DNA of 13,022 nucleotides. It comes from Candidatus Iainarchaeum sp. (GTDB taxonomy: Archaea > Iainarchaeota > Iainarchaeia > Iainarchaeales > CSSED10-239). The notes beneath the pieces were generated by a model. It was given only the letters and a program-made list of their open reading frames with translations. It was not told where the DNA came from and searched no databases. Below, in pieces: positions 55 through 13,022 of this stretch. The stretch's first letter is position 1, and each line of letters opens with the position of its first letter. The stretch is taken from contig CALBUD010000036.1 of NCBI GenBank assembly GCA_937968065.1, forward strand, positions 1 through 13,022, given 5' to 3'. A program made the translations under genes and the position numbers.

Positions 55-819
55 TCATATTTTTTCAATTTCTCTTCTTAAAACATTATAATTTGCATCA
101 TAAGTCAAAGGATCAAACAAAAATAAATCAAATGGTTTTTTTGATAGATCTATAAAACAATTTCTATCATCAAGATCAATATCTCTTAAACCTTTTTTTT
201 TAAGTATTTCTTTTAGTTTAGAGAATTTTTGATTAATTTTTTTAACATCCTCTACATTAATCTTTTTTTTATTAACAACATCTCTTACAGTTGGAAGATA
301 AGAGAGTTCATAAACAATAAATGATTTTATAAGTTGTCTATGAAAAGGAAATTTTTTTCTATCTAAATAACTATCAAAAGCGAAATGAGGTTTTATTATT
401 TTAAAACCAATTTCTCTTGCATCTTTTTCAATTAGTCTTAAAGCAATTAATTCTTCAGTTAAAGATAATTCAACTTTATCTCTAGTTTCTTTTATAAAAA
501 ATCTTACTGGTTTTTTTTTATTAATAATTAAAACAAAACCATCACTTGCAAAAGAAGAATCTGTTCTTTTTTTATTAATAATTTGATTTGTAACTTTTAA
601 TATCTCAAATCTGTTTTTTTCATCAACAAATCTTTTTTCTTTTTTGTTATTTGATAAAAAATTAACAGCTTTAATAATTCCAGGATTTTCTCTTAATAAC
701 TCTCTTGCAAAATTACTATATACTATTTTTTTACCACCATACCTATTAGTCATGCTTTCTTTATAAGTATATCTATTAGGATTTTTTATAACTTTTACAT
801 TTCTTTTTAAAAGAGGCAT
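55..819 (-). CDS. hypothetical protein (possible atypical protein-kinase-like fold; motif-level only)
   Basis: 254-codon ORF with ATG at 817-819 and TGA at 55-57. It starts 29 nt downstream of the hisS stop, so co-transcription is plausible. I recognise no family with certainty. By eye there is a kinase-like motif order: SDGFVLII, FFIKE (K110), EELIALRLIE, hinge-like IVYEL, a catalytic-loop-like D-L-D-D-R-N (aa 215-220) and LFLFDP (D236). Confidence 0.6.
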   Translation of the reverse strand: MPLLKRNVKVIKNPNRYTYKESMTNRYGGKKIVYSNFARELLRENPGIIKAVNFLSNNKKEKRFVDEKNRFEILKVTNQIINKKRTDSSFASDGFVLIINKKKPVRFFIKETRDKVELSLTEELIALRLIEKDAREIGFKIIKPHFAFDSYLDRKKFPFHRQLIKSFIVYELSYLPTVRDVVNKKKINVEDVKKINQKFSKLKEILKKKGLRDIDLDDRNCFIDLSKKPFDLFLFDPLTYDANYNVLRREIEKI

Positions 820-2301: not shown

Positions 2302-2439
2302 TTATTTAGAGATAACTAAAACTCCTTTTTCTATAGTTATATTTACAAAATTATTAAAACCTAATGATTTTCTAACAGAAGAAGGAATAGTTATTCTATT
2401 CTTTGAATCAATGATGATGGGGTCTTGAAAAACAATTGT
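2302..2439 (-). pseudogene. second AbrB/SpoVT-type half-domain, open frame without a canonical start (+1 frame relative to 2408..2563)
   Basis: The minus-strand frame is open from 2439 to the TAA at 2302-2304. It encodes TIVFQDPIIIDSKNRITIPSSVRKSLGFNNFVNITIEKGVLVISK. The segment D-x-K-x-R-I-x-I-P-x-x-V-R-K-x-L-G followed by short beta-like segments is the classic SpoVT/AbrB swapped-hairpin signature. There is no ATG, GTG or TTG in this frame. It overlaps the 3' end of the upstream 51-codon ORF in the +1 frame. Confidence 0.45.
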
Positions 2440-2563
2440 TTATTAAAAAAGTAGAATTATTTAAATTAAAATCATATTTAAGAATATAGTTATCATTAAA
2501 CATTTTTAGAAAAATATTTGAAAGTCTTATTCTTCCTTTTTCATCTATTTTATATTTTTTCAT
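2408..2563 (-). CDS. small AbrB/SpoVT-type DNA-binding domain protein (first half of a possibly frameshifted two-domain gene)
   Basis: 51-codon ORF below the ORF-track cutoff, hand-translated: MKKYKIDEKGRIRLSNIFLKMFNDNYILKYDFNLNNSTFLINNCFSRPHHH, ending in TGA at 2408-2410. KIDEKGRIRL matches the D-x-x-G-R-I-x-[IL] AbrB/MraZ-type motif. A TTTATAAA box lies 24-31 nt upstream of the ATG. Confidence 0.5.
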   Translation of the reverse strand: MKKYKIDEKGRIRLSNIFLKMFNDNYILKYDFNLNNSTFLINNCFSRPHHH

Positions 2564-2728: not shown

Positions 2729-2998
2729 TTATAATTTACTCTTAAATTCTTTACCAACTTTAAATGAAACTGTTTTACTTGCAGCTATCTTCATAGACTT
2801 TCCTGTTTGTGGATTTCTACCCATTCTAGCAGCTCTTTTCTTAACTTTGAAAGTACCAAAACCAACTAATTGTAATTTTCCATCTTTTTTTACAATAGTT
2901 TTCATAGCATCTAAAGTAATATTAATAAACTCTTCAGCTTTTGATTTTGATAAATCTGTTTTCTTAACAACAGCTTCAACTAATGTACTTTTGTTCAT
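2729..2998 (-). CDS. hup: HU/IHF-family DNA-binding protein (bacterial-type histone-like protein)
   Basis: 89-aa ORF. MNKSTLVEAVVKKTDLSKSKAEEFINITLDAMKTIVKKDGKLQLVGFGTFKVKKRAARMGRNPQTGKSMKIAASKTVSFKVGKEFK matches the HU signature GFGTF-x-V-x-x-R-x-A-R-x-GRNP-x-TG-x-x-x-x-I-x-A-x-x-x-x-x-FK-x-GK along its full length. Confidence 0.92.
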   Translation of the reverse strand: MNKSTLVEAVVKKTDLSKSKAEEFINITLDAMKTIVKKDGKLQLVGFGTFKVKKRAARMGRNPQTGKSMKIAASKTVSFKVGKEFKSKL

Positions 2999-3025: not shown

Positions 3026-3108
3026 AATCTATAAGGTATTAAATTAATATTAATACTAAAGATTTTTAAATAGATGTTTTTTTTTCCTTTATTTATAGGC
3101 TTTAACAG

Positions 3109-3182
3109 TGGATCTATTGGGATTTGAACCCAAGTTTTAGGCTCCGCAAGCCTACGTGCTATCCAGACTACACCATAGATCC
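3109..3182 (-). tRNA. tRNA-Arg (anticodon GCG), no encoded CCA
   Basis: The reverse complement reads GGATCTATGGTGTAGTCTGGATAGCACGTAGGCTTGCGGAGCCTAAAACTTGGGTTCAAATCCCAATAGATCCA. It has a perfect 7-bp acceptor GGATCTA/TAGATCC, D stem GTGT/GCAC, anticodon stem TAGGC/GCCTA with loop TTGCGGA, and T arm TTGGG-TTCAAAT-CCCAA. The discriminator is A. Confidence 0.9.
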
Positions 3183-3188
3183 TTTTTT

Positions 3189-3206
3189 AAAAAAATTAAA
3201 AAAAAA
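3189..3206 (-). terminator. oligo-T tracts between the last cluster gene and tRNA-Arg (terminator and/or tRNA promoter region)
   Basis: The minus strand after the stop at 3209-3211 reads ATA-TTTTTTTTT-AA-TTTTTTT-AAAAAA and then the tRNA 5' end. The T9 and T7 runs fit archaeal termination. The same AT tract occupies the tRNA promoter position, so its function is ambiguous. Confidence 0.3.
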
Positions 3207-3208
3207 TA

Positions 3209-3571
3209 TTACTTGCGTTTCTTTGCTGCTGCTTGACGAGAAATTGTTGAAGTTCCCCAAAAGAAAACAGACACAAGTCCAAACCCTAAGAAAAGATATG
3301 CCATCATTATAGCACTTGTAAGATAAAGATATTTATAAACTAAAAAATAAGCAATAACACCAGTTACAATAAATGTTAATATATGTTTTTCTCCAAAAGC
3401 TTGAGCTGTGTTTTCATATATAAAAAAAATAATAAGTCCCATGATAACATATCTAACAAGAGGAAACATTGCCATAGCTCCAGGAACTATTAATACAGCT
3501 ATAACAGAAATAATTAGTATTTTTACAATTAATGGAAGTGCACCAATAAATCCTTTTTGATTATTTACCAT
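3209..3571 (-). CDS. small integral membrane protein (about 4 predicted TM helices), unknown function
   Basis: 120-aa ORF starting 3 nt after the stop of the preceding gene. It has four hydrophobic stretches (FIGALPLIVKILIISVIAVLIV, FPLVRYVIMGLIIFFIY, ILTFIVTGVIAYFLVY, AIMMAYLFLGFGLVSVFFW) and a basic C-terminal tail RQAAAKKRK. I recognise no family. Confidence 0.75.
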   Translation of the reverse strand: MVNNQKGFIGALPLIVKILIISVIAVLIVPGAMAMFPLVRYVIMGLIIFFIYENTAQAFGEKHILTFIVTGVIAYFLVYKYLYLTSAIMMAYLFLGFGLVSVFFWGTSTISRQAAAKKRK

Positions 3572-3574
3572 AAT

Positions 3575-3946
3575 TTATCTACCTGGTGGCTTTGGTCCCA
3601 TTTTTTTAACCAATTTATTTCTTGCAGCAGCATCTGTTGCTCCTGGTGCTCCATGAGTTTCCATTTTTCTACCCATCATCTCTTCTGGAGAACCACCAGC
3701 ACTAATAAAGAAAAAATCAACAAATATTCCAGCAACTCCTACAGATAAAAGAATATAAAAAACATATCCTACTCTAAAAACAGGCCAAAACAAAAATATC
3801 ATAACAATAACTGTAAGACTTATAAGCACTAAAGCTAAAGTGTTATGAGTAACTCTTCTTCTAATAAAAGCTATGATTGCTAATATTAAAAATATCTGTA
3901 AGATAAAATCAAAATCTTGTAAAAAACCTAAATAAATGTTTAACAT
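3575..3946 (-). CDS. small integral membrane protein (about 3 predicted TM helices) with a charged Gly/Pro/Ala-rich C-terminal tail, unknown function
   Basis: 123-aa ORF starting 14 nt after the giant gene stop. Hydrophobic stretches are ILQIFLILAIIAFI, LALVLISLTVIVMIFLFWPVF and VGYVFYILLSVGVAGIFVDFFFISA. A soluble tail follows: GGSPEEMMGRKMETHGAPGATDAAARNKLVKKMGPKPPGR. I recognise no family. Confidence 0.75.
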   Translation of the reverse strand: MLNIYLGFLQDFDFILQIFLILAIIAFIRRRVTHNTLALVLISLTVIVMIFLFWPVFRVGYVFYILLSVGVAGIFVDFFFISAGGSPEEMMGRKMETHGAPGATDAAARNKLVKKMGPKPPGR

Positions 3947-3960
3947 ATTTTTTTCTTTTT

Positions 3961-6900
3961 TTAATCTATTTGGATAGGATTATTTATTGTGTTACAAATA
4001 AAATCTTGAGAATAATTTTCTTGTATCTCTAAAAGTTCTTCTTCTGTAAAATTAACTTCTTCTTCAACCCATTTAACATAAGTGTTTGTTGGTGATTTAA
4101 AGATACATGCTTTCTCATCTTTAATATATTCAAAGATACCTTTTATTGTTTTTAAATTTTCAAGATCAGAACCAATAACATGTGCTTGAGAGCTAAAGGT
4201 TATATCTTTTGTTCCTTGAAGATTGTTCTTTGAAAATATTTTTGTATATTCATTATTATTAAATCCTGTTGTTTTAAAAATAACAGAGTCTATAGGTAAA
4301 TCATTAACGATTGGAAGATATAACATTGCACTTATACTGTTTGTATCATTAATATTATTTGTTTCTAAAACAAATCTGTTTCCTTGAATGCTGCTTGCAT
4401 ATAATTGATCTGTTAGATAAGAGATGTTATTATCCCATCTTAAAAAGGAACTATCAAAACCACTTATAAGAGCATCTAAAGGATTATCTAATAGATAAAG
4501 ATTATATGAAAAGTTAGTTTCTAGAGGGCATCCAATATTTGCATATAAAGGTATAGGATAAGAAGGGGTATATTCAAGTTGTACAAAATCTTGTATTTTT
4601 CTAAGATCTAATATTTTTCCTTGAGAGTTAATTGTTTGTTTAATAGCTCCTAGATGATTGTTATTTGTAAGAACTAAAGTTGTTATAGGATCTTCTTTTA
4701 AAATATTTTCTAAAGTAAATGATGGATTAATAGAAATTTCATCTCCTTCAGCAGAAGAAATAGAAATTCCATACCCTAAACTTTCTGAGTTATTTAATCT
4801 ACCATTTAATGGCATATAATGGAAAACACTAAGTTCTGATGAAGGTATACTTCTTTCAAAAGATAATCTTATATCTATTCTTTTATCATTTAGATCATTC
4901 TTATAACTTACATCTTCATCTCCATAAACTTTAACTTCATAAACTCCTGGTCTAAAAACAGATTCTCCTGAATCTAAAGAAATTTTAAAATTATCATCTA
5001 TAACTGCTTGTTCTGTAAATAAATCTTGATTTGTAGGTTTATTAAATTTAGCATAAATACTTAAAGAATCATTCTCTCTATAATCTATAAAATCTTTTAA
5101 AAGATCTTTTGAGATTCCATCATTCATTAATTTTATATAGAATGATTCTTGAGATCCATCTTGTATCTTATGGAATATTGAAATTAACATTTGAAGAGAA
5201 TCACAAGCATATTTTTCACTCATGTTATCAAGAGAATCTCCAATACATTTAGTCGTCCAAGATTCAGTTTCTTCTCCCCAATTAAAAAAGACTTTTGGAA
5301 GAGCATCTTCTCCTGTGTAACAAACATCTTCTTCTTCTTCACAAAATCCTAATATAAAGATGTCTTCACCTAAATAAGTTCCACCAACACCTACACAAAA
5401 TTCATTTTCAAGATCACTTTCATAATAATCCATATCTATTTTTTTAATCTCATAACTTAAAGATTTTTCTTTTTCAAAAGATTTATCAAGACCTTGTAAA
5501 TTAAAACTAAATATTGTGTTTGTCTCTTCTGAAAAAACAGTTTCTTCTAAAGAAGAATAGTTTGAATAATATCTTAAAGTTTTATTTATAAATTCTTGAG
5601 AAAGTAAAGTACTTCCTGAAAAATTATCTACAAACAAATATTCTTGAGAAGGATTTAATGAAACTTCTGATAATAAATCAACATCATAATTATTTGCTAA
5701 GTTTCTTAAGTTATATGTTTTTCTACTATCACAATTTGTATTTGAACAAAATATAGTTAAAACATTACTTGTATTTTCTGTAATTTCAACTAATGAATCT
5801 TTATCAAATACTTTAATATTAAAAATTTCTTTTAAAGAAACAACAGTTTCATCTTTCTTTAATTTAAAATCAATAATTATAATTTCTTCTTGTGAAGGAT
5901 AACTATTAAAGTTTTCATTAATTTTAAAATTTAAAATTATTTCTAAATTATTTAAAGGTTGATTTGAAAAGTTTATAATTGAAGCTTCTAAAGCATCAGA
6001 ATCTATAAAACTTGGAAGAGAACTAAAAGATACTTCTTCTAAAATAATATCAGATGTGCTTGTTGAAAATAAATATTTTAATTCTATTTCTGGATTTAAA
6101 TCTTTTATAAGCTCTAAACTATGGTTGTTATTCTCTTGGTTATAAAAAACTCCTTTTTTAGGGGAAGGGAAAGAAACTTCATAATTTATCTGTCCAAGAT
6201 TAATTGCAAAAACATTAGAAAAAACATCTAACATCTGTGTTATGCTTGGAAATTTAAGTTCATTTCTAAATAAAGCTTTTGTACTTAAATTACCTTCAGT
6301 TGGAAGAGTATCTGATAAAAATATTTTTGTAAAAATACTTGTGTTCTTAGAACTTAAAGACCTTGGAATTGGAGAGTTTTCTTCTAAAAGATATTCATTA
6401 ATCTCTTCAACTTCAAAGTAAGATACTTCATTCGGTATAAAAGAAATATTTTCTAAAGAAGGAACAAGTGTATTTTTCTTTTCAATCTCATATTCTTTAC
6501 TAACCTCTCCTTTAACAAATCTATCATTAACCTTAAGATAATAAGTTGAAAAGTTAAGAGGTTGTCCTGGAACCATAAATCCAGAATTAATTATTTTTTC
6601 TTTTCTTATAGTATTTCCAGGAATTCCAGCACTTGCATCAAATATAAATGAAAAGGTTACTTTTTTGGACATATCTTGTATATTAAAAATAAGCTCTTGA
6701 ACATTTAAGATACCTTGTTGGTTTGTTTTTCCTAAAAGAATATTATCTTCAACTCCTTGTATCTGATATTTTATAGAAACATCATTTACAGGACTTCCAA
6801 AATCATCTAAGACTTTAAAAGAAAGATTGTTTGAACCTACAAATATTTGTTCTGGTGAAATATCTATTAAAAACTTTTCATCAGAATTATAAGCATATAA

Positions 6901-9900
6901 CTTTGTATTAATTAAAGGAAAATTATTTAAAATATTTGTAATCATTCTTGGTTCTGAATAATTTGCAATTTCAAAAAAACCTTCTGGTTTAAACAAAGTA
7001 TATTTTTTAAGAAGATATCCTCTTTGAGCATCTATATTTAATAAAGAATAATTAGTATCTTCAACAGATATATGATTATAAATATTATTTATATTTCCTG
7101 GAGAACTATCAAGAGAAGAGGTATATCCATAACTTAAATATTTAAGATTATTATTTGTGTTGCTTGAAGTTTGTAGAATATTTCCTGTTCTTGAATCTGA
7201 TTTTAGATAAATATATTCTAAATCATATTTATATGTAGAATTAATATCTATCTTATGTCCATCTAAAAAAGAAGGAAGCACACTGTTATTTATATCTTTT
7301 ATCTTAGTATTATAAATATAATCTGAGTTACTAAACGGTATTTGGTATTTATTTGTTTTAGCATAAAAATATCCTTCAGGATAGAATGGTATCTGGTTCC
7401 AAGAAGTTGGAAGTTCAGGATCATAACTATAGGTGCTTCCATAAATAACACTTAAAGCTCTATAATTAATAATATAATTTTCAATTGGTGCTATTGGTGT
7501 TTCTTTAAACTTAATGTTTAATGAAAATTCAATTATTTGTGGTTTTAATTCTCTAAAATCAATTTCTAACCATTTATAATTATTAAGATTATAATCTAAA
7601 GATTTATCTAAATTATAATTATTTTGGAAAAGAGTTGTATTAAAATCAGGAACATGCTCTCCTGAAAATCTATATCCTCTTTTAACCTCTATATCTTGTG
7701 ATAAAATATCTTCTGAAACAAAAGAAACTGAATCTTCATTTATGAAAATTTTATTTCCAGCTCTAATATGTGCTAACTTTATTTCTGAGTCTTTAAGACA
7801 AGAGATGTATTTTAATTTTATTCTATATTCTTTAGATAAACCATTTTCAATAAAATCAATATTATTAACTACAAAGGAACCTGTTTTATCAAACAAACCA
7901 AGAACTTCTATTTTTCCATCACTACAAGAGGTTAAAGATAATAAAGTTATTTCTTTAAAGATTTCAACTCCAGAAACTAAATTAATAAGTTCTGTTTGAT
8001 AAGTTGTATAACCATCAGCAGAAATAACAGCATAAACTTTATTTATGTTCTCTCCAGTGAAGGTATATTGTTTATTATTATCTACATCAACTGTTACATA
8101 TTCATTTATTTGTAAATGTTGAGAAGTATAAAAATTAATATCATATGAGATGTTAGGATTTACTTTTAGATTTAATGTTTTAGGAATATCTAAAAGATTT
8201 ACATCTAATTTTAAGAAAGAATTAACATCAAGTCTTTCAATTTCTGAAACACCTTGTTTATCAAGAACAGAATGTATTGCATAAGCATAATATTCTCTAT
8301 TTGCTCTTTGCATTGTAAAATTAACATCTCCAAATTGATTTGTATATTTAGGTTCTTGATTTACTAAAACAAAATCATCTTCAAATTCTCTATAAAGATA
8401 CACTCTTGCACTATTTACATTAATCTCTTGATTTTTAACATTTACACCAATAACTCCAGAATTAAGTTCTGAAGAATATTCAAGATAAACAATTATGTTT
8501 TTATCAATTCCATCAACTAAAACTGGATCTGGTTGAAGATAACCGTTTTCTTCAGTATTAAGAACTCTTACTCTATAAGTATAAAAGTCTAAAACATCAA
8601 AGATTGCATGACTTTTATTTCTTAAAACACTGCCAAGAGAAGAATAACTTTCATTTGAATCTTTTAATTTATATTCTAAAGTAATATCTGCAAAAACAGG
8701 TTCTTCAGTTTCACTATCTAATAAAGTAACATCAATATATCCTGGAATACCAATACTACAAGAACCATCTTCATTAAAATGAAGGAATGGTTTTAAATGT
8801 TGGTTTGAACAATCGATTTGGTTATTTATACAAAATGGTTTATATCTATCTTGAGAACAATCAAAGTCAAGTAAATCATCAATTGTGAATAATATAAATT
8901 CTACATTTGTTGTGTTATCTTTAACAACAGAAAAAGGTCCTTTTCTTGGATAGGTTAGATAACCTTCTTTTGCTGCTGTTACAAGATATTGTTTAGGTTC
9001 TAGATTAAATTGATTAACACCATAAATATCTGTTGTTGTAGAATCAAATGGTAATAATGGTGTTGATTGAGAATAATTATAAACTGTTAATTGTGCATTT
9101 GAAAGAGGATTATTTGAAATGTTTTTAACACTAATCCCTAAGGTTCCTTTATCATTATTTATTCTTATTAAAACTATTTTATTATTTTCTGGAACTACTT
9201 GATTTGTTATAGAATTAAATTGTGTAGAGGTTACAGAAACTCTTAAAGAACCACATCCTGCAGGAGTTTTAACTAAAACTTTTCCTGTAGATACCAAGGT
9301 TGTTCTAGGTTCTGGTTGTTTTTCTGTATTTGTACATGAAAAGGTTGTGTTTAATGTAACATTATTTATTAAAATATCATTGTTTTCAACAAAAATAATA
9401 TCTCTTTCTTGTGCTGGGTTTACTGGTATTATTGGATTTTCAGTATCAATGGTTAAAGTTATAATATGTCTTAAATTATTTTTATTTAATTTAAATTCAT
9501 ATTCTTTTGTGTTATAATGTTCTTTTGAAACAATTAATTTTACATTTTGTTTTCTAGATTTTAAATCTCTAAAAATAACTTCACCAAAAATATTTGTTTC
9601 AAGAGAAGAAACTTCTTTATCTTTTATTTGTAAACTTACAAGAGCTTCACTTACTGGTGTGTTCGATTGATCATAAACTTCAACTGATATTGTCCAAGTT
9701 TTTGAAAAAGATAAAGTTCCTGAGATTATAAGGTATAATAATAATACAAGTAATATTAAAAACAAAATAAAACTTGGAAATTTTTTATCAATTTTATCTG
9801 TAAGTTTATTTATTGGTAAAATTTTACTAATACCATCTACACAACTATAATAAATATCTTCAAAAAAGAAATAAATCATTCTAAAAAAATCTTTTATTTT

Positions 9901-10308
9901 TGTTAAAAAACCGACTTTAGAAACTGAGGTTAGATTTTTCTTTTTTTCTTCTTTCTTTAAAGGTTCTTCTTTTTTTATAGGTTCTTCTTTTTTTTCTTCT
10001 TTCTTTAAAGGTGCTTCTTTCTTTTCATCTACAGAAATTTTTTCTTTTTTATTTTTAATAGAGTATGATAATTCTTTTAAGATTTGTTCTTTTGAAAGTT
10101 CAGTTGTATTTTTCTTTAAAGTATCTTTTAAAGGTAACTTATTATCTTGTATCATCTTTACAACTAAAGAAGTTACTTTTTGATTATATCCTTGAGATAA
10201 AACAGCATCTTTAATCTCATCTATTGTATATTTTTGTGTTTTATTAGATAGAAGATCATATAATTTTTCTGCATCTATTTTATCTTTTGATTTTTTAAAT
10301 AATGACAT
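3961..10308 (-). CDS. giant (2115 aa) single-pass membrane-anchored surface protein with repeated beta-sandwich-like modules, unknown function
   Basis: An uninterrupted 6348-nt ORF in a genome where stop triplets are very frequent. The N-terminal 176 aa or so are Lys/Glu-rich and predicted cytoplasmic. A single hydrophobic span FPSFILFLILLVLLLYLIISG (aa 177-197, nt 9718-9780) is preceded by DKIDKK, which fits positive-inside topology. The remaining 1900 aa or so form an Asn/Ser/Thr-rich ectodomain. It contains at least five carboxypeptidase-regulatory-like/PEGA-like patterns, for example ISVEVYDQSNTPVSEALVSL...IFGEVIFRDL...VKLIVSKEHY, GISVKNISNNPLSNAQLTVY...YLVTAAKEGY, GVNVKNQEINVNSARVYLY...FGDVNF and FKVLDDFGSPVNDVSIKY...TNQQGILNV. 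I see no catalytic motif. Confidence 0.9.
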   Translation of the reverse strand: MSLFKKSKDKIDAEKLYDLLSNKTQKYTIDEIKDAVLSQGYNQKVTSLVVKMIQDNKLPLKDTLKKNTTELSKEQILKELSYSIKNKKEKISVDEKKEAPLKKEEKKEEPIKKEEPLKKEEKKKNLTSVSKVGFLTKIKDFFRMIYFFFEDIYYSCVDGISKILPINKLTDKIDKKFPSFILFLILLVLLLYLIISGTLSFSKTWTISVEVYDQSNTPVSEALVSLQIKDKEVSSLETNIFGEVIFRDLKSRKQNVKLIVSKEHYNTKEYEFKLNKNNLRHIITLTIDTENPIIPVNPAQERDIIFVENNDILINNVTLNTTFSCTNTEKQPEPRTTLVSTGKVLVKTPAGCGSLRVSVTSTQFNSITNQVVPENNKIVLIRINNDKGTLGISVKNISNNPLSNAQLTVYNYSQSTPLLPFDSTTTDIYGVNQFNLEPKQYLVTAAKEGYLTYPRKGPFSVVKDNTTNVEFILFTIDDLLDFDCSQDRYKPFCINNQIDCSNQHLKPFLHFNEDGSCSIGIPGYIDVTLLDSETEEPVFADITLEYKLKDSNESYSSLGSVLRNKSHAIFDVLDFYTYRVRVLNTEENGYLQPDPVLVDGIDKNIIVYLEYSSELNSGVIGVNVKNQEINVNSARVYLYREFEDDFVLVNQEPKYTNQFGDVNFTMQRANREYYAYAIHSVLDKQGVSEIERLDVNSFLKLDVNLLDIPKTLNLKVNPNISYDINFYTSQHLQINEYVTVDVDNNKQYTFTGENINKVYAVISADGYTTYQTELINLVSGVEIFKEITLLSLTSCSDGKIEVLGLFDKTGSFVVNNIDFIENGLSKEYRIKLKYISCLKDSEIKLAHIRAGNKIFINEDSVSFVSEDILSQDIEVKRGYRFSGEHVPDFNTTLFQNNYNLDKSLDYNLNNYKWLEIDFRELKPQIIEFSLNIKFKETPIAPIENYIINYRALSVIYGSTYSYDPELPTSWNQIPFYPEGYFYAKTNKYQIPFSNSDYIYNTKIKDINNSVLPSFLDGHKIDINSTYKYDLEYIYLKSDSRTGNILQTSSNTNNNLKYLSYGYTSSLDSSPGNINNIYNHISVEDTNYSLLNIDAQRGYLLKKYTLFKPEGFFEIANYSEPRMITNILNNFPLINTKLYAYNSDEKFLIDISPEQIFVGSNNLSFKVLDDFGSPVNDVSIKYQIQGVEDNILLGKTNQQGILNVQELIFNIQDMSKKVTFSFIFDASAGIPGNTIRKEKIINSGFMVPGQPLNFSTYYLKVNDRFVKGEVSKEYEIEKKNTLVPSLENISFIPNEVSYFEVEEINEYLLEENSPIPRSLSSKNTSIFTKIFLSDTLPTEGNLSTKALFRNELKFPSITQMLDVFSNVFAINLGQINYEVSFPSPKKGVFYNQENNNHSLELIKDLNPEIELKYLFSTSTSDIILEEVSFSSLPSFIDSDALEASIINFSNQPLNNLEIILNFKINENFNSYPSQEEIIIIDFKLKKDETVVSLKEIFNIKVFDKDSLVEITENTSNVLTIFCSNTNCDSRKTYNLRNLANNYDVDLLSEVSLNPSQEYLFVDNFSGSTLLSQEFINKTLRYYSNYSSLEETVFSEETNTIFSFNLQGLDKSFEKEKSLSYEIKKIDMDYYESDLENEFCVGVGGTYLGEDIFILGFCEEEEDVCYTGEDALPKVFFNWGEETESWTTKCIGDSLDNMSEKYACDSLQMLISIFHKIQDGSQESFYIKLMNDGISKDLLKDFIDYRENDSLSIYAKFNKPTNQDLFTEQAVIDDNFKISLDSGESVFRPGVYEVKVYGDEDVSYKNDLNDKRIDIRLSFERSIPSSELSVFHYMPLNGRLNNSESLGYGISISSAEGDEISINPSFTLENILKEDPITTLVLTNNNHLGAIKQTINSQGKILDLRKIQDFVQLEYTPSYPIPLYANIGCPLETNFSYNLYLLDNPLDALISGFDSSFLRWDNNISYLTDQLYASSIQGNRFVLETNNINDTNSISAMLYLPIVNDLPIDSVIFKTTGFNNNEYTKIFSKNNLQGTKDITFSSQAHVIGSDLENLKTIKGIFEYIKDEKACIFKSPTNTYVKWVEEEVNFTEEELLEIQENYSQDFICNTINNPIQID
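9933..10026 (-). repeat. in-frame Lys/Glu/Pro low-complexity repeat within the cytoplasmic N-terminus of the giant protein
   Basis: The peptide is EKKEAPLKKEEKKEEPIKKEEPLKKEEKKK. At DNA level the 19-mer ttcttctttctttaaaggt occurs twice (9946-9964 and 9994-10012), 48 nt or 16 codons apart. A degenerate copy lies between them. Confidence 0.6.
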
Positions 10309-10330
10309 ATTTCTTTCTTTTTTTTAATTT

Positions 10331-12769
10331 TTATCTAAAGATTGGTGTGAATGGAAAATTAAAGCTTTTACTTCCATTATCGCTAGTTATTGTTCCATCT
10401 AATCTATAATTTTGATAATAACAATATAATTCTTTATCTGAAAGATTCATTAAAGGATCATAATACCATTCAAGAACCTCTCCTGTTACCTTATACTCAT
10501 AAAGTCCTAATGTTTGGTTATACTCACCAACAATCACTTCTTTATTTTTATATAAAGCATCATATGGAGCAACAACAAAAGGATTTAAAGAAGGAATCTT
10601 TGTAAACTCAGAATTGTTTTTTGAATAAAATATAAATAAATTATTTTGATTTATCTGTCCAGGAAATGTTGAATAAAGAACATAGTCTTTGGAAAATTTA
10701 TATCCTGTGTTATCAGGCATAATATTTATTTCTTTAAGATCATAATAATCACATAATGAACAATTTGGATTATCAGTTAAAGTCTTATTAATGTTTGAAG
10801 GAATTCTATCTTTAAAATCATCTTGGTTTGCAGATTTTATAGTGACTGCTTTAGTGGTATAATTTAGATTTGAAGGAGGTTTTTGTATATAACAAGAATC
10901 TTGAACAAGAATTGAACGATTATCTAAATTTTGTTCTGTATACTCAACATCTGATAGATCTTCAAGACATATATTATAGTTAGAAATACATGCAGAACAT
11001 TCAGGTATTCCATTTAAACATTCTTGATTATAAGAAATACAATCTTCTCCTGAATAAAGAGTACAACAATCTTCACAAACCCCATCATCATCTAAACACT
11101 GATATTTATCATCTTCACATTGTTGTATTTTAGAATCTCTTTCTTTTATATAAGGTAAATTTTCTGTTTTAACTTCTTGTGGAAGATAACTTCCTGTTTG
11201 TAAAGTTTTTATAAATAATTGATTTGAATTAATATTTTCTTTATAAGTAATTAAATTTATTTTCATATCTTTTGTTCTATTTATTAAATAATCAAATCTA
11301 AGATTAAGTGTTTCATTTAAATTTCCATTTGGTTGATCTTGTCCTGTTAATCCTTTATAACCAAAGAAACCATCTTTTACATCTATATTAAAAATATGAT
11401 TATTTTCAAGTAATTTAATATTGATGTCTCCATTATTTATTCCTCCTGCATTTCCACCCTTACCTTTATATCCATCATTTGTGTGTTGGTGTTTACGTCC
11501 TCCGTTCCCACCCTCTCCTGCGTCTAAAGATAAATTAAAAGTCCCATTATTAATTACTTTTGCAATTTGAGAAATATTTATAGAACCGCCATTTCCACCA
11601 AATCCACCATGTACAGTATTTGATGTACCAGAGGCCTTTCCTCTATCTCTTCCAGTATCTCCACCATCTCCTCCATTTCCAGGAGTTAATTTTAGTTCTA
11701 ATTTTGAATTTTTATTATTAATTATAGTATTTACATTAAAAGATAAATTTCCTGCATCTCCACCAAATCCACCATGACCAATATCACCTACATATGGTTT
11801 TGATTTTTTTTGATCAAGTCCTTTCCCACCAGGTCCAGCATTACCAGTAGATAAATTAAAATTTAATTCTTTTAAATTATTTATTTCATCTATAATTATT
11901 TCAACATCTCCAGAGTCTCCTCCTCTTCTACCATCTAAATGACCTGTAGAACCAGGATTTCCAACCTTTCCATTTCCTGTTTTAATATCTAAATTAAAAG
12001 TACCTTCATTTTTTATATTTTCTAATTGTAGTTTAAAATTTTCAGAATGTGCAGTTCCTGGATTCATTAAAACCTCACCAATTGTTGGAAAATCAAAATA
12101 TACATCTTCATAAGTAGTTCCAGAATATTTAAAATCTAAAGTACTATTTTCTTTTATAATCACATCTTTTAATTTAACTTCAACAGTGTTATTTGTTTCT
12201 TTGTTTAAAATTAAAACATCTTCTTTAACATTTAATTCTGTAAAACCTTTTACAACTAAATCTAAACTTAGATCAAATTTTTTATTAAAAGATTCATTAG
12301 TGTTTAAAACAGATAAAGTTATATCTTTTCCATTTGAAATTAAAGAATCAATTCCTTGAATTTTAAATTCTTGTTTTTGTTCTTTTATCTCAAGTTCTAA
12401 ATCAGCTCCAAGCTCTAAATTAATTTTTTTATCAGAACAAGTATTATTAAAAACTAAATCATTACTTTTTTTTATTGAAAGTGGATTAGGATTAGTGTTT
12501 TGAGAAATACAACTATTTACACAACTATTATAACCATCAAAAAAATCAGTTGGACAAGAAGAAACACAAGAATCAAGAGAAGAATAAACATCTGAAGTTT
12601 TTAAAATATAAAAATAACAATCCTCTCCAGAACATCCTTGAAAAATAATTGTTTCTTGTACAGGGGTTCCTCGTAAACTTAAATTACAAGTTTCAAAAGA
12701 AAAAACATATGATTGTATAAATATAATAAATAATATTAAAACAATTGTTAAAATAATTTTTTTTATCAT
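10331..12769 (-). CDS. secreted 812-aa protein with Gly-rich tandem repeats flanked by Cys-rich modules, unknown function
   Basis: The N-terminus is signal-peptide-like: MIKKIILTIVLILFIIFIQSYVFS. There are 8 Cys in aa 28-111. Gly-rich repeats of about 55 aa span aa 246-480. There are 10 Cys in aa 551-601 (QQCEDDKYQCLDDDGVCEDCCTLYSGEDCISYNQECLNGIPECSACISNYNIC). There is no C-terminal hydrophobic anchor; the protein ends FNFPFTPIFR. Its stop codon lies 22 nt upstream of the giant gene start. Confidence 0.9.
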   Translation of the reverse strand: MIKKIILTIVLILFIIFIQSYVFSFETCNLSLRGTPVQETIIFQGCSGEDCYFYILKTSDVYSSLDSCVSSCPTDFFDGYNSCVNSCISQNTNPNPLSIKKSNDLVFNNTCSDKKINLELGADLELEIKEQKQEFKIQGIDSLISNGKDITLSVLNTNESFNKKFDLSLDLVVKGFTELNVKEDVLILNKETNNTVEVKLKDVIIKENSTLDFKYSGTTYEDVYFDFPTIGEVLMNPGTAHSENFKLQLENIKNEGTFNLDIKTGNGKVGNPGSTGHLDGRRGGDSGDVEIIIDEINNLKELNFNLSTGNAGPGGKGLDQKKSKPYVGDIGHGGFGGDAGNLSFNVNTIINNKNSKLELKLTPGNGGDGGDTGRDRGKASGTSNTVHGGFGGNGGSINISQIAKVINNGTFNLSLDAGEGGNGGRKHQHTNDGYKGKGGNAGGINNGDINIKLLENNHIFNIDVKDGFFGYKGLTGQDQPNGNLNETLNLRFDYLINRTKDMKINLITYKENINSNQLFIKTLQTGSYLPQEVKTENLPYIKERDSKIQQCEDDKYQCLDDDGVCEDCCTLYSGEDCISYNQECLNGIPECSACISNYNICLEDLSDVEYTEQNLDNRSILVQDSCYIQKPPSNLNYTTKAVTIKSANQDDFKDRIPSNINKTLTDNPNCSLCDYYDLKEINIMPDNTGYKFSKDYVLYSTFPGQINQNNLFIFYSKNNSEFTKIPSLNPFVVAPYDALYKNKEVIVGEYNQTLGLYEYKVTGEVLEWYYDPLMNLSDKELYCYYQNYRLDGTITSDNGSKSFNFPFTPIFR
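11330..12034 (-). repeat. coding tandem repeats (about 4.5 units of about 50-55 aa) alternating beta-strand-like INN-x-hxhxh segments with Gly-rich loops
   Basis: Units aligned by eye: (1) NEGTFNLDIKTGNGKVGNPGSTGHLDGRRGGDSGDVEIIID; (2) INNLKELNFNLSTGNAGPGGKG...GHGGFGGDAGNLSFNVNT; (3) IINNKNSKLELKLTPGNGGDGGDTG...VHGGFGGNGGSINIS; (4) VINNGTFNLSLDAGEGGNGG...GKGGNAGGINNGDINIK; (5) NNHIFNIDVKDGFFGYKG. The DNA 17-mer ccaccaaatccaccatg, which encodes HGGFGG, occurs at 11595-11611 and 11760-11776. These are exactly 165 nt or 55 codons apart. Confidence 0.7.
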
Positions 12770-12820
12770 ATCACATCTTTTTTTTATAAAATATTTTTTT
12801 AAAATAATTTAATACACTTT

Positions 12821-13022
12821 TCATCTCTCTAAATTAAATAAAATATTTATTCTACTATCTTCATAACCTACTCTATTAAAAATAAATCTAAAACTATTTA
12901 TGCTTGATTGATTAACAGAGGTTGGAGAATTAATAACTGGTTTTATAAAAATAATATTATTTCTAATTTTAAAATCTAAAGTAGATAATACAGAAGAATC
13001 ACTTTCAAAAGTACCCTCTGAA
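12821..13022 (-). CDS. 3' end of an upstream ORF truncated by the window edge (hypothetical protein)
   Basis: A minus-strand frame is open for 66 codons from the window edge (13021) to TGA at 12821-12823. It encodes SEGTFESDSSVLSTLDFKIRNNIIFIKPVINSPTSVNQSSINSFRFIFNRVGYEDSRINILFNLER. This is a long open stretch for such AT-rich DNA. It is on the same strand as, and 51 nt upstream of, the 812-aa gene. The composition (N/S/I-rich) resembles the neighbouring surface proteins. Confidence 0.45.
   Translation of the reverse strand, partial: SEGTFESDSSVLSTLDFKIRNNIIFIKPVINSPTSVNQSSINSFRFIFNRVGYEDSRINILFNLER

Follow-up and report, generated by a model that had tools for sequence, protein, structure and literature searches.

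A lineage-restricted family of small membrane proteins with three transmembrane (TM) helices was found to be strictly linked to the terminal gene of an array of giant surface proteins in Candidatus Iainarchaeum and its relatives. The window, i.e. the whole stretch of DNA that was analysed, is the entire 13,022-bp contig CALBUD010000036.1 of assembly GCA_937968065.1, with a GC content of ~25% throughout and all genes on the minus strand according to open reading frame (ORF) calling. In the direction of transcription, the block of interest comprised a truncated ORF (12821..13022, the 'sUp' slot), corresponding to the last 66 codons of a gene for a small secreted protein; an 812 amino acid (aa) secreted protein (10331..12769; ORF and hydropathy); a 2115-aa giant, hereafter giant B (3961..10308; ORF, hydropathy and alignment); and two small membrane proteins, the 123-aa s123 (also m1; 3575..3946; ORF and AlphaFold2 (AF2) model) and the 120-aa s120 (also m2; 3209..3571; ORF and hydropathy). 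All ORFs of the block had conserved orthologues and are thus genuine. From these sequence comparisons, the array was interpreted as a surface tether or adhesin apparatus equipped with a dedicated small membrane platform, a reading to which we give about an even chance.

Both small genes directly followed giant B in 14 of 14 Iainarchaeal loci, and the order 812-like protein, giant, 123-aa protein and 120-aa protein was kept in about 14 Iainarchaeal loci, i.e. in every one with coverage. The triad of giant, s123 and s120 extended to about 20 lineages and to identities as low as ~25%; the distant s123 homologues were 23-40% identical, with GC contents of 28-54%. The distant contexts were retrieved by a metagenome scan with a 14-member s123 subset, together with locus look-ups. 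Every distant s123 homologue had an s120 homologue as its immediate downstream neighbour (E 1e-12 to 1e-19) and, where upstream sequence exists, a giant belonging to the same superfamily in front of it, except on L043 and L044, which are short contigs. Loci L051 and L052 possessed genes for TrmB, a class I aminoacyl-tRNA synthetase (PF00749), Lon and ribosomal proteins downstream of the triad, and not those for HU and the histidyl-tRNA synthetase (HisRS), while in L053 a toxin-antitoxin pair (UPF0175 and DUF3368/PIN-like; 3356-4160) sat between the giant and s123. The earlier note had proposed that the products of the block form one functional unit, and had suggested looking for conserved linkage of the small membrane genes in relatives. 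This linkage was retained in all covered Iainarchaeal loci as well as in distant lineages with changed flanks. As the triad was kept in close and distant lineages alike, even after rearrangement of its flanks, comparative genomics supports a single functional unit well.

At loci L043-L050 and L053, the two small genes belonged to a five-gene module, m1-m5 (L043 2211-3900; L045 750-2426; L046 839-2620; L049 9917-11297; L053 4213-5889). In this module, m1 corresponds to s123 and m2 to s120, m3 encoded 80-89 aa, m4 106-113 aa with a Gly-rich tail, and m5 110-129 aa with one TM helix and a soluble helical part. None of the m1-m5 proteins matched a Pfam family, and no m3, m4 or m5 was detected at the Iainarchaeal loci closely related to the window. 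Two genes past the module and beside DNA polymerase B, a conserved 499-518-aa HerA/DUF87-like protein was encoded in L049 (12145-13701), L050 (12567-14066) and L053 (6544-8058), scoring 21.5 bits against a cut-off of 23.2 and carrying GNDFERKH or GGTPEERR at the Walker A position. A link of this HerA-like ATPase to the module, in the manner of conjugation or Ced-like systems, was rejected, since the gene occurred at only three distant loci, opposite-strand genes intervened and the P-loop was degenerate. The close relatives of the window yielded no homologue of it.

The AF2 model of s123 consisted of three long TM helices with a predicted local distance difference test score (pLDDT) >90 and a flexible tail (overall pLDDT 83.8), and the predicted topology was N-out/C-in. 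The tail spanned ~40 aa and was hydrophilic, basic, Met/Gly-containing and conserved. For this reason s123 is not purely membrane-embedded, and the earlier description of both small proteins in these terms held for their multiple TM spans but not for s123 as a whole. Four residues were invariant or near-invariant in the s123 family (D11, G70, D77 and F80), with D77 lying in a VDFFF motif. The second protein, s120, showed about four hydrophobic spans or TM helices, an invariant W105-G-T and a basic C-terminus. In the window, the s123 stop codon and the s120 start codon were in the same frame with a single codon between them (AGA TAA ATT ATG; 3572-3577); this arrangement is not conserved, as the two genes overlap by 4 nucleotides (nt), out of frame, at locus L001.

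An exhaustive profile search over 1.84 billion representative proteins recovered 76 clusters of s123 relatives, all of 82-195 aa, whereas word-based searches recovered relatives of s123 and s120 in the close clade only. Named members of the s123 family were assigned to Iainarchaeota/Diapherotrites, to one 'Micrarchaeota' metagenome-assembled genome (MAG) or to an unclassified 'archaeon', and the s123/s120 family is apparently restricted to DPANN archaea, judging from the sequences recovered. As defined here, it comprises proteins of ~105-195 aa with a 3-TM core and the motifs D-x-x-[LF]-x-L-K-I-F and G-x(6)-D-F-F-F, whose genes lie behind that of a giant and immediately ahead of an s120-type paralogue; the s123 of the window fits this definition. 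Comparison of 72 aligned s123 members with Pfam yielded no credible family: of the eight families reaching E<0.01, seven matched one member each and Wzy_C matched two. The s123 of the window itself gave noise only (YfhO and YdjM, E 0.04-0.09) and s120 nothing at E<=0.1. Neither protein matched the SemiSWEET/PQ-loop, SMR, Fluc (CrcB), GtrA or LrgA-type Pfam families. The s123 and s120 profiles had no meaningful match among PDB sequences, and the s123 AF2 model had none in the PDB at E<0.001 (Foldseek).

The two small proteins are probably paralogues, with s120 having diverged, according to profile comparisons. No similarity was detected by hhalign between narrow alignments of s120 and s123. With a wider s123 profile, distant s120-type proteins (21-30 bits) and m3 (16 bits) could be aligned collinearly along the entire 3-TM core, compared with at most 10 bits for residue shuffles and scores below zero for reversed sequences. 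As the s120 of the window scored only 3 bits against this profile and is clearly homologous to m2, its paralogy to s123 would follow by transitivity.

Alternatively, the small proteins could form an independent channel or transporter of 3-TM hetero-oligomers, of SemiSWEET or holin type, with a functional Asp77, co-regulated with the giants and not anchoring them, for example for the uptake of host-derived compounds after contact. The 3-TM core common to m1, m2 and m3, the Asp and Gly of TM3 that are invariant among the 72 members, the growth of the module to five small genes in some lineages and its presence without an adjoining giant in L043/L044 would all be in keeping with such a channel. 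We nevertheless regard it as rather unlikely, since no likeness to a transporter, channel or holin emerged from Pfam, PDB sequences or Foldseek, the adjacency to the giants was strict in about 20 lineages despite changed flanks, and Asp77 would lie near the predicted cytoplasmic end of TM3 and not in mid-membrane.

The giant itself possessed a single TM span (~178-204) behind an N-terminus of ~175 aa, as indicated by hydropathy, and is predicted to be a type-II membrane protein with a cytoplasmic N-terminus and ~1900 aa outside the cell. It contained 36 N-x-S/T sequons. A search of 5.8 billion proteins returned 19 homologues, mostly full length, with identities of 29-54%. Orthologues of giant B shared a conserved cytoplasmic N-domain of ~60 aa followed by a Lys/Glu-rich linker. 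The most conserved segment of the conservation profile, with its invariant columns, was the juxtamembrane motif and TM helix at residues ~143-204 (9697..9882, minus strand), reading YFFFEDxYY...PINKLTDKIDKxFPSF before the helix. N-terminal alignment showed this anchor module to be common to very distant Iainarchaeota giants with different ectodomains.

Past the anchor, about 1000 residues were occupied by CarboxypepD_reg and Big_1-like beta-sandwich domains. CarboxypepD_reg (PF13620) scored 50.2 bits for a Pfam cut-off of 32.3 in two stretches, the better of which covered residues 393-473 (8890..9132, minus strand), and it was present in 15 of 16 orthologues; it is a structural, non-catalytic domain and assigns no function. 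Big_1 (PF02369) remained below its cut-off of 34.9 with 28.4 bits (E 1.8e-6, residues 1159-1203) and was found at E<0.01 in 8 of 16 orthologues. Residues 1250-1650 were variable, and residues 1600-2115 (3964..5511, minus strand) formed a C-terminal 'head' module with invariant Cys, Trp and Asp, also present in the giant A encoded upstream in relatives and in stand-alone 600-850-aa proteins of other lineages. The AF2 model of the head (pLDDT 70.9, predicted template modelling score 0.72) found no structure at E<0.001 in the PDB or BFVD with Foldseek, the best value being 0.13 in both, and the whole-giant profile had no meaningful match among PDB sequences.

The 812-aa protein upstream of giant B possessed an N-terminal signal-like hydrophobic segment (hydropathy) and 22 Cys, with Cys-rich stretches at residues 28-111 and 551-601 and a Gly-rich repeat region at ~240-480. 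It matched nothing in Pfam, NCBIfam or the PDB, and a look-up of its exact sequence returned no record. Its last ~195 aa (residues 614-812; 10334..10930, minus strand) constituted a conserved domain, delimited with a local hidden Markov model (HMM) built from 15 C-termini (E 1e-28 to 1e-70), which was always C-terminal and was encoded by the gene immediately 5' of giant B in each of the 14 Iainarchaeal loci covering that position; it was not seen in more distant loci. A C-terminal domain common to the small upstream secreted proteins and the 812-aa proteins had been suspected by eye, and was abandoned because the HMM gave it no support. The export or anchoring signals that had been ascribed to both large products were recovered, as a signal-like N-terminus and a TM span respectively. 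The same account had found no catalytic or named family signature in them: no catalytic or characterised family was indeed detected, but CarboxypepD_reg stood above its threshold in the giant. Their novelty withstood the searches, which returned only generic Ig-like and CarboxypepD_reg domains and no PDB match in sequence or fold.

Judged by its relatives, the window is the 3' end of a larger co-directional array of giants. When one genome per species was scanned for the giant anchor, with the juxtamembrane motif YFFFEDxYY...ILPINKLTDKIDKKFPSF as pattern, 25 loci were recovered. Nearly all came from Candidatus Iainarchaeum or Diapherotrites MAGs and one from the complete genome of Ca. Forterrea multitransposorum, which bears out the small-genome DPANN archaeon envisaged from the sequence alone. 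Relatives possessed arrays of two to five giants. At L001 and L003, whose giants were 52% and 36% identical to that of the window respectively, the order was giant A (>2400 aa), a 120-125-aa secreted protein, a 746-816-aa protein, giant B, proteins of ~120 and ~118 aa, and HU. The truncated ORF of the window aligned with positions 7189-7551 of L007 (38% identity, E 8e-5, BLASTP), and its orthologues in L001, L005 and L007 had 120-125 aa, a signal peptide and a position between the upstream giant and the 812-aa gene. The block noted earlier, with four complete genes and a truncated ORF, was thus found as such, except that the cluster runs on upstream past the window edge. As a further fragment of an 812-type C-terminus preceded giant A in L010, the unit of secreted protein and giant is repeated. 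Arrays of giants are also common in this group, as seen from three tandem giants in L054 (1-17662), where one of 2489 aa was followed by a 168-aa gene and then by giants of 2952 and 2553 aa.

Giants with the same anchor motif were also present on contigs binned as Falkowbacteria, Chloroflexota and Thaumarchaeota (L022, L025, L027); mis-binning is likely, as their gene content resembles that of Iainarchaeota loci. In L021 (7843-10885) and L027 (16612-19694), distant paralogous giants were followed by a Peptidase_A24 prepilin peptidase, soluble proteins of 107 and 82 aa and a radical SAM enzyme, which may represent a second kind of accessory set for the giant superfamily. The prepilin peptidase was rejected as a component of the system described here, having been found beside distant paralogous giants only. 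No relatives were found in IMG/VR viral contigs and no match in the PADLOC defence search, and a viral or defence origin is excluded as far as these tools reach.

The genes of the block evolved at contrasting rates. Compared with L001, identity reached 84% for s123, 85% for s120, 77% for HisRS and 90% for HU, while the giant was 52% and the 812-aa protein 33% identical. Such a series, from a constrained membrane core through a giant of intermediate rate to a fast-evolving secreted protein, fits a surface device with diversifying exposed parts, and it is because of this pattern, and because the unit was kept over long distances, that an array of tethers for attachment is favoured. In such an apparatus, the giants would be exported by Sec and reach tens of nanometres from the cell, and their distal head, together with the secreted 812-type protein docked through its conserved C-terminal domain, would contact a partner cell or substrate. 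The paralogues s123 and s120 could assemble through their common 3-TM core into a hetero-oligomeric membrane platform that engages the juxtamembrane YFFFEDxYY...PSF motif and TM helix of the giant, with the cytoplasmic tail of s123 possibly engaging the cytoplasmic N-domain specific to giant B. The role of this platform would be to anchor the tethers, to cluster them or to act as their gate. A contact of s123 and s120 with the giant anchor, the docking of the 812-aa protein and an adhesive function are all inferred.

A bolder version of this mechanism seems unlikely to us. In it, the tandem 3-TM paralogues, two here and up to five elsewhere, would form a DPANN-specific hetero-oligomeric pore or gate under the tethers, making the whole an envelope-spanning contact-and-exchange device. 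If true, archaea with minimal metabolism could use it to obtain lipids, nucleotides or other compounds from a partner cell, and it would represent an intercellular conduit of a new class, with no relation to the secretion and pilus systems known so far.

Several points weigh against the tether apparatus. Adhesion is deduced from domain types that are also present in non-adhesive envelope proteins, and whether Iainarchaeota live as symbionts or freely is unsettled (PMC5905446). In L043/L044, the small-protein module followed an AAA ATPase gene and no giant lay within 2 kb, on contigs that are short. Part of the conservation of gene order reflects shared ancestry, since HU and HisRS were syntenic across the close clade.

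The giants and the 812-aa protein might instead build an S-layer lattice that the small proteins anchor to the membrane, as in SlaA/SlaB. The proteins are large, secreted or anchored, rich in sequons and beta-sandwich domains and encoded together, and Ig-like archaeal S-layer proteins can diverge past sequence recognition (bioRxiv 10.1101/2024.05.28.596244). Against this, no S-layer family was matched in Pfam, NCBIfam or the PDB. A survey of S-layer proteins assigns to Iainarchaeota another protein, of 1039 aa (A0A2G9N319), distinct by its description; and several fast-diversifying paralogous giants per genome would be unusual for a lattice protein. It is on these last two grounds that the lattice is disfavoured, and an N-terminal anchor behind a 175-aa cytoplasmic region would also be atypical. 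Overall, we give the lattice only a slim chance. Least probable of all is that there is no functional unit and that the small genes are housekeeping neighbours held by inherited synteny, as are HU and HisRS, which adjoined the block throughout the close clade and, for HisRS, were matched in conservation by s123/s120 among close relatives: the HU/HisRS linkage was broken by an 1836-aa insertion in L008 and by wholly different neighbours in L049-L053 while the triad persisted, the small genes were spaced by 14 and 3 nt in the window and overlapped by 4 nt in L001, and 76 clusters among 1.84 billion representatives, with archaeal labels on the members checked by name, are unlike a general housekeeping protein. 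The tether apparatus with its membrane platform thus remains the preferred reading.

At the 3' end of the block, directly past the last stop codon, the minus strand carried a T9 (3198-3206) and a T7 tract (3189-3195; together 3189..3206), likely an archaeal oligo-T terminator given its position, followed by tRNA-Arg(GCG) at 3108-3182. The gene layout given in the earlier note, the gaps of 51, 22, 14 and 3 nt between successive genes, the T tracts and the tRNA were all confirmed from the sequence, and the share of the window attributed to the two large ORFs, about 70%, was measured at 67% (8781 nt). Further 3' in the window lay the genes for HU, tRNA-His and HisRS as well as a 254-aa ORF. The first of these encoded a bacterial-type HU/IHF DNA-binding protein in a DPANN archaeon (2729-2998, minus strand; PF00216, 102.7 bits), which was 66-91% identical across the clade and usually immediately 3' of the small membrane genes. 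An AbrB/MraZ-like gene (2303-2563, minus strand) with two motifs, IDxKGRI and IDSKNRITIP, was split over two frames by a frameshift near the run 'ccccatcatcat', which corresponds to a pseudogene or a sequencing error. The Lys-rich 254-aa ORF (55-819, minus strand) matched nothing in Pfam, NCBIfam or PADLOC, and none of the fetched loci contained a homologue.

Giant surface proteins of DPANN archaea are known already, and the orthologous region of Forterrea was flagged in 2018, when five membrane-anchored proteins of >1,800 aa were reported in a 42-kbp region of Ca. Forterrea multitransposorum and read as probable cell-cell interaction proteins (Probst & Banfield 2018, PMC5905446). This region is the locus L007 (CP045477.1), with giant B at 48%, s123 at 83% and s120 at 81% identity, followed by HU and HisRS. 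That paper devotes one sentence to it, with no analysis of domains or distribution and no mention of 812-type or small membrane proteins, and no other paper on this region was found in the literature searched. As the giants had been flagged there, the novelty lies mainly in the small-protein family and its strict linkage and not in the giants. New are the repeated unit of secreted protein and giant and the shared anchor and head modules and, above all, the lineage-restricted small 3-TM family strictly linked to the terminal giant.

How DPANN archaea of minimal metabolism attach to other cells and acquire material from them is largely unknown, and almost nothing is known in this respect for Iainarchaeota. 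The locus offers a conserved parts list, composed of giants with a common head, fast-evolving secreted partners and a constrained small membrane family, which can be searched for in metatranscriptomes, metaproteomes and tomograms of enrichments, and its small proteins have a length suited to heterologous expression and structural work. Should they turn out to form the base on which the tethers sit in the membrane, they would be the first accessory components reported to be dedicated to giant surface proteins in DPANN archaea.

Among known systems, the SPEARE proteins of Nanohaloarchaeota reportedly carry serine-protease, adhesion and restriction-endonuclease domains. In contrast, no protease or endonuclease Pfam families were found in the giant or its 15 orthologues, and no sequence relationship with SPEAREs was detected. 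SPEAREs exceed 5,000 aa (Hamm et al. 2019, cited in bioRxiv 10.1101/2025.05.02.651781). Like the proteins described here, they are giant surface proteins of reduced-genome DPANN archaea thought to mediate host interaction, but they are not known to be linked to a small-membrane-protein module.

Two types of archaeal surface machinery were considered and rejected. Type IV pilins with a class III signal peptide, which have a hydrophobic helix at the extreme N-terminus together with a short charged stretch and a prepilin-peptidase cleavage site, do not fit, as a conserved region of 175 aa precedes the TM span of the giant, which begins only at ~178, and the small proteins are polytopic. A Ced/Ted or type IV secretion-like system, which would call for a VirB4/HerA-type ATPase with intact Walker motifs beside small VirB2-like membrane proteins, does not fit either, as no ATPase is encoded in the window or its close relatives.

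Bacterial adhesins of the SiiE and Bap types resemble the giant in their long beta-sandwich arrays, of Big and CarboxypepD_reg-like domains, and in their distinct distal module. Such adhesins are exported by a type I secretion system (T1SS) or through sortase and are not N-terminally TM-anchored, and T1SS or sortase export components are absent here. For the small proteins, the resemblance to SemiSWEET bundles and class I holins is topological only, with no similarity in Pfam, the PDB or Foldseek; it consists in a length of ~100-130 aa, three TM helices and tandem paralogues, as well as, for class I holins, the predicted N-out/C-in orientation and basic tail of s123.

The SlaA/SlaB pair of Sulfolobales likewise combines a large outer surface protein with a membrane-embedded anchoring partner encoded beside it. 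No homology to either protein was found. In the locus described here, the giant has its own TM anchor, its partners are two tiny polytopic proteins in place of a single-pass stalk, and each genome possesses several paralogous giants.

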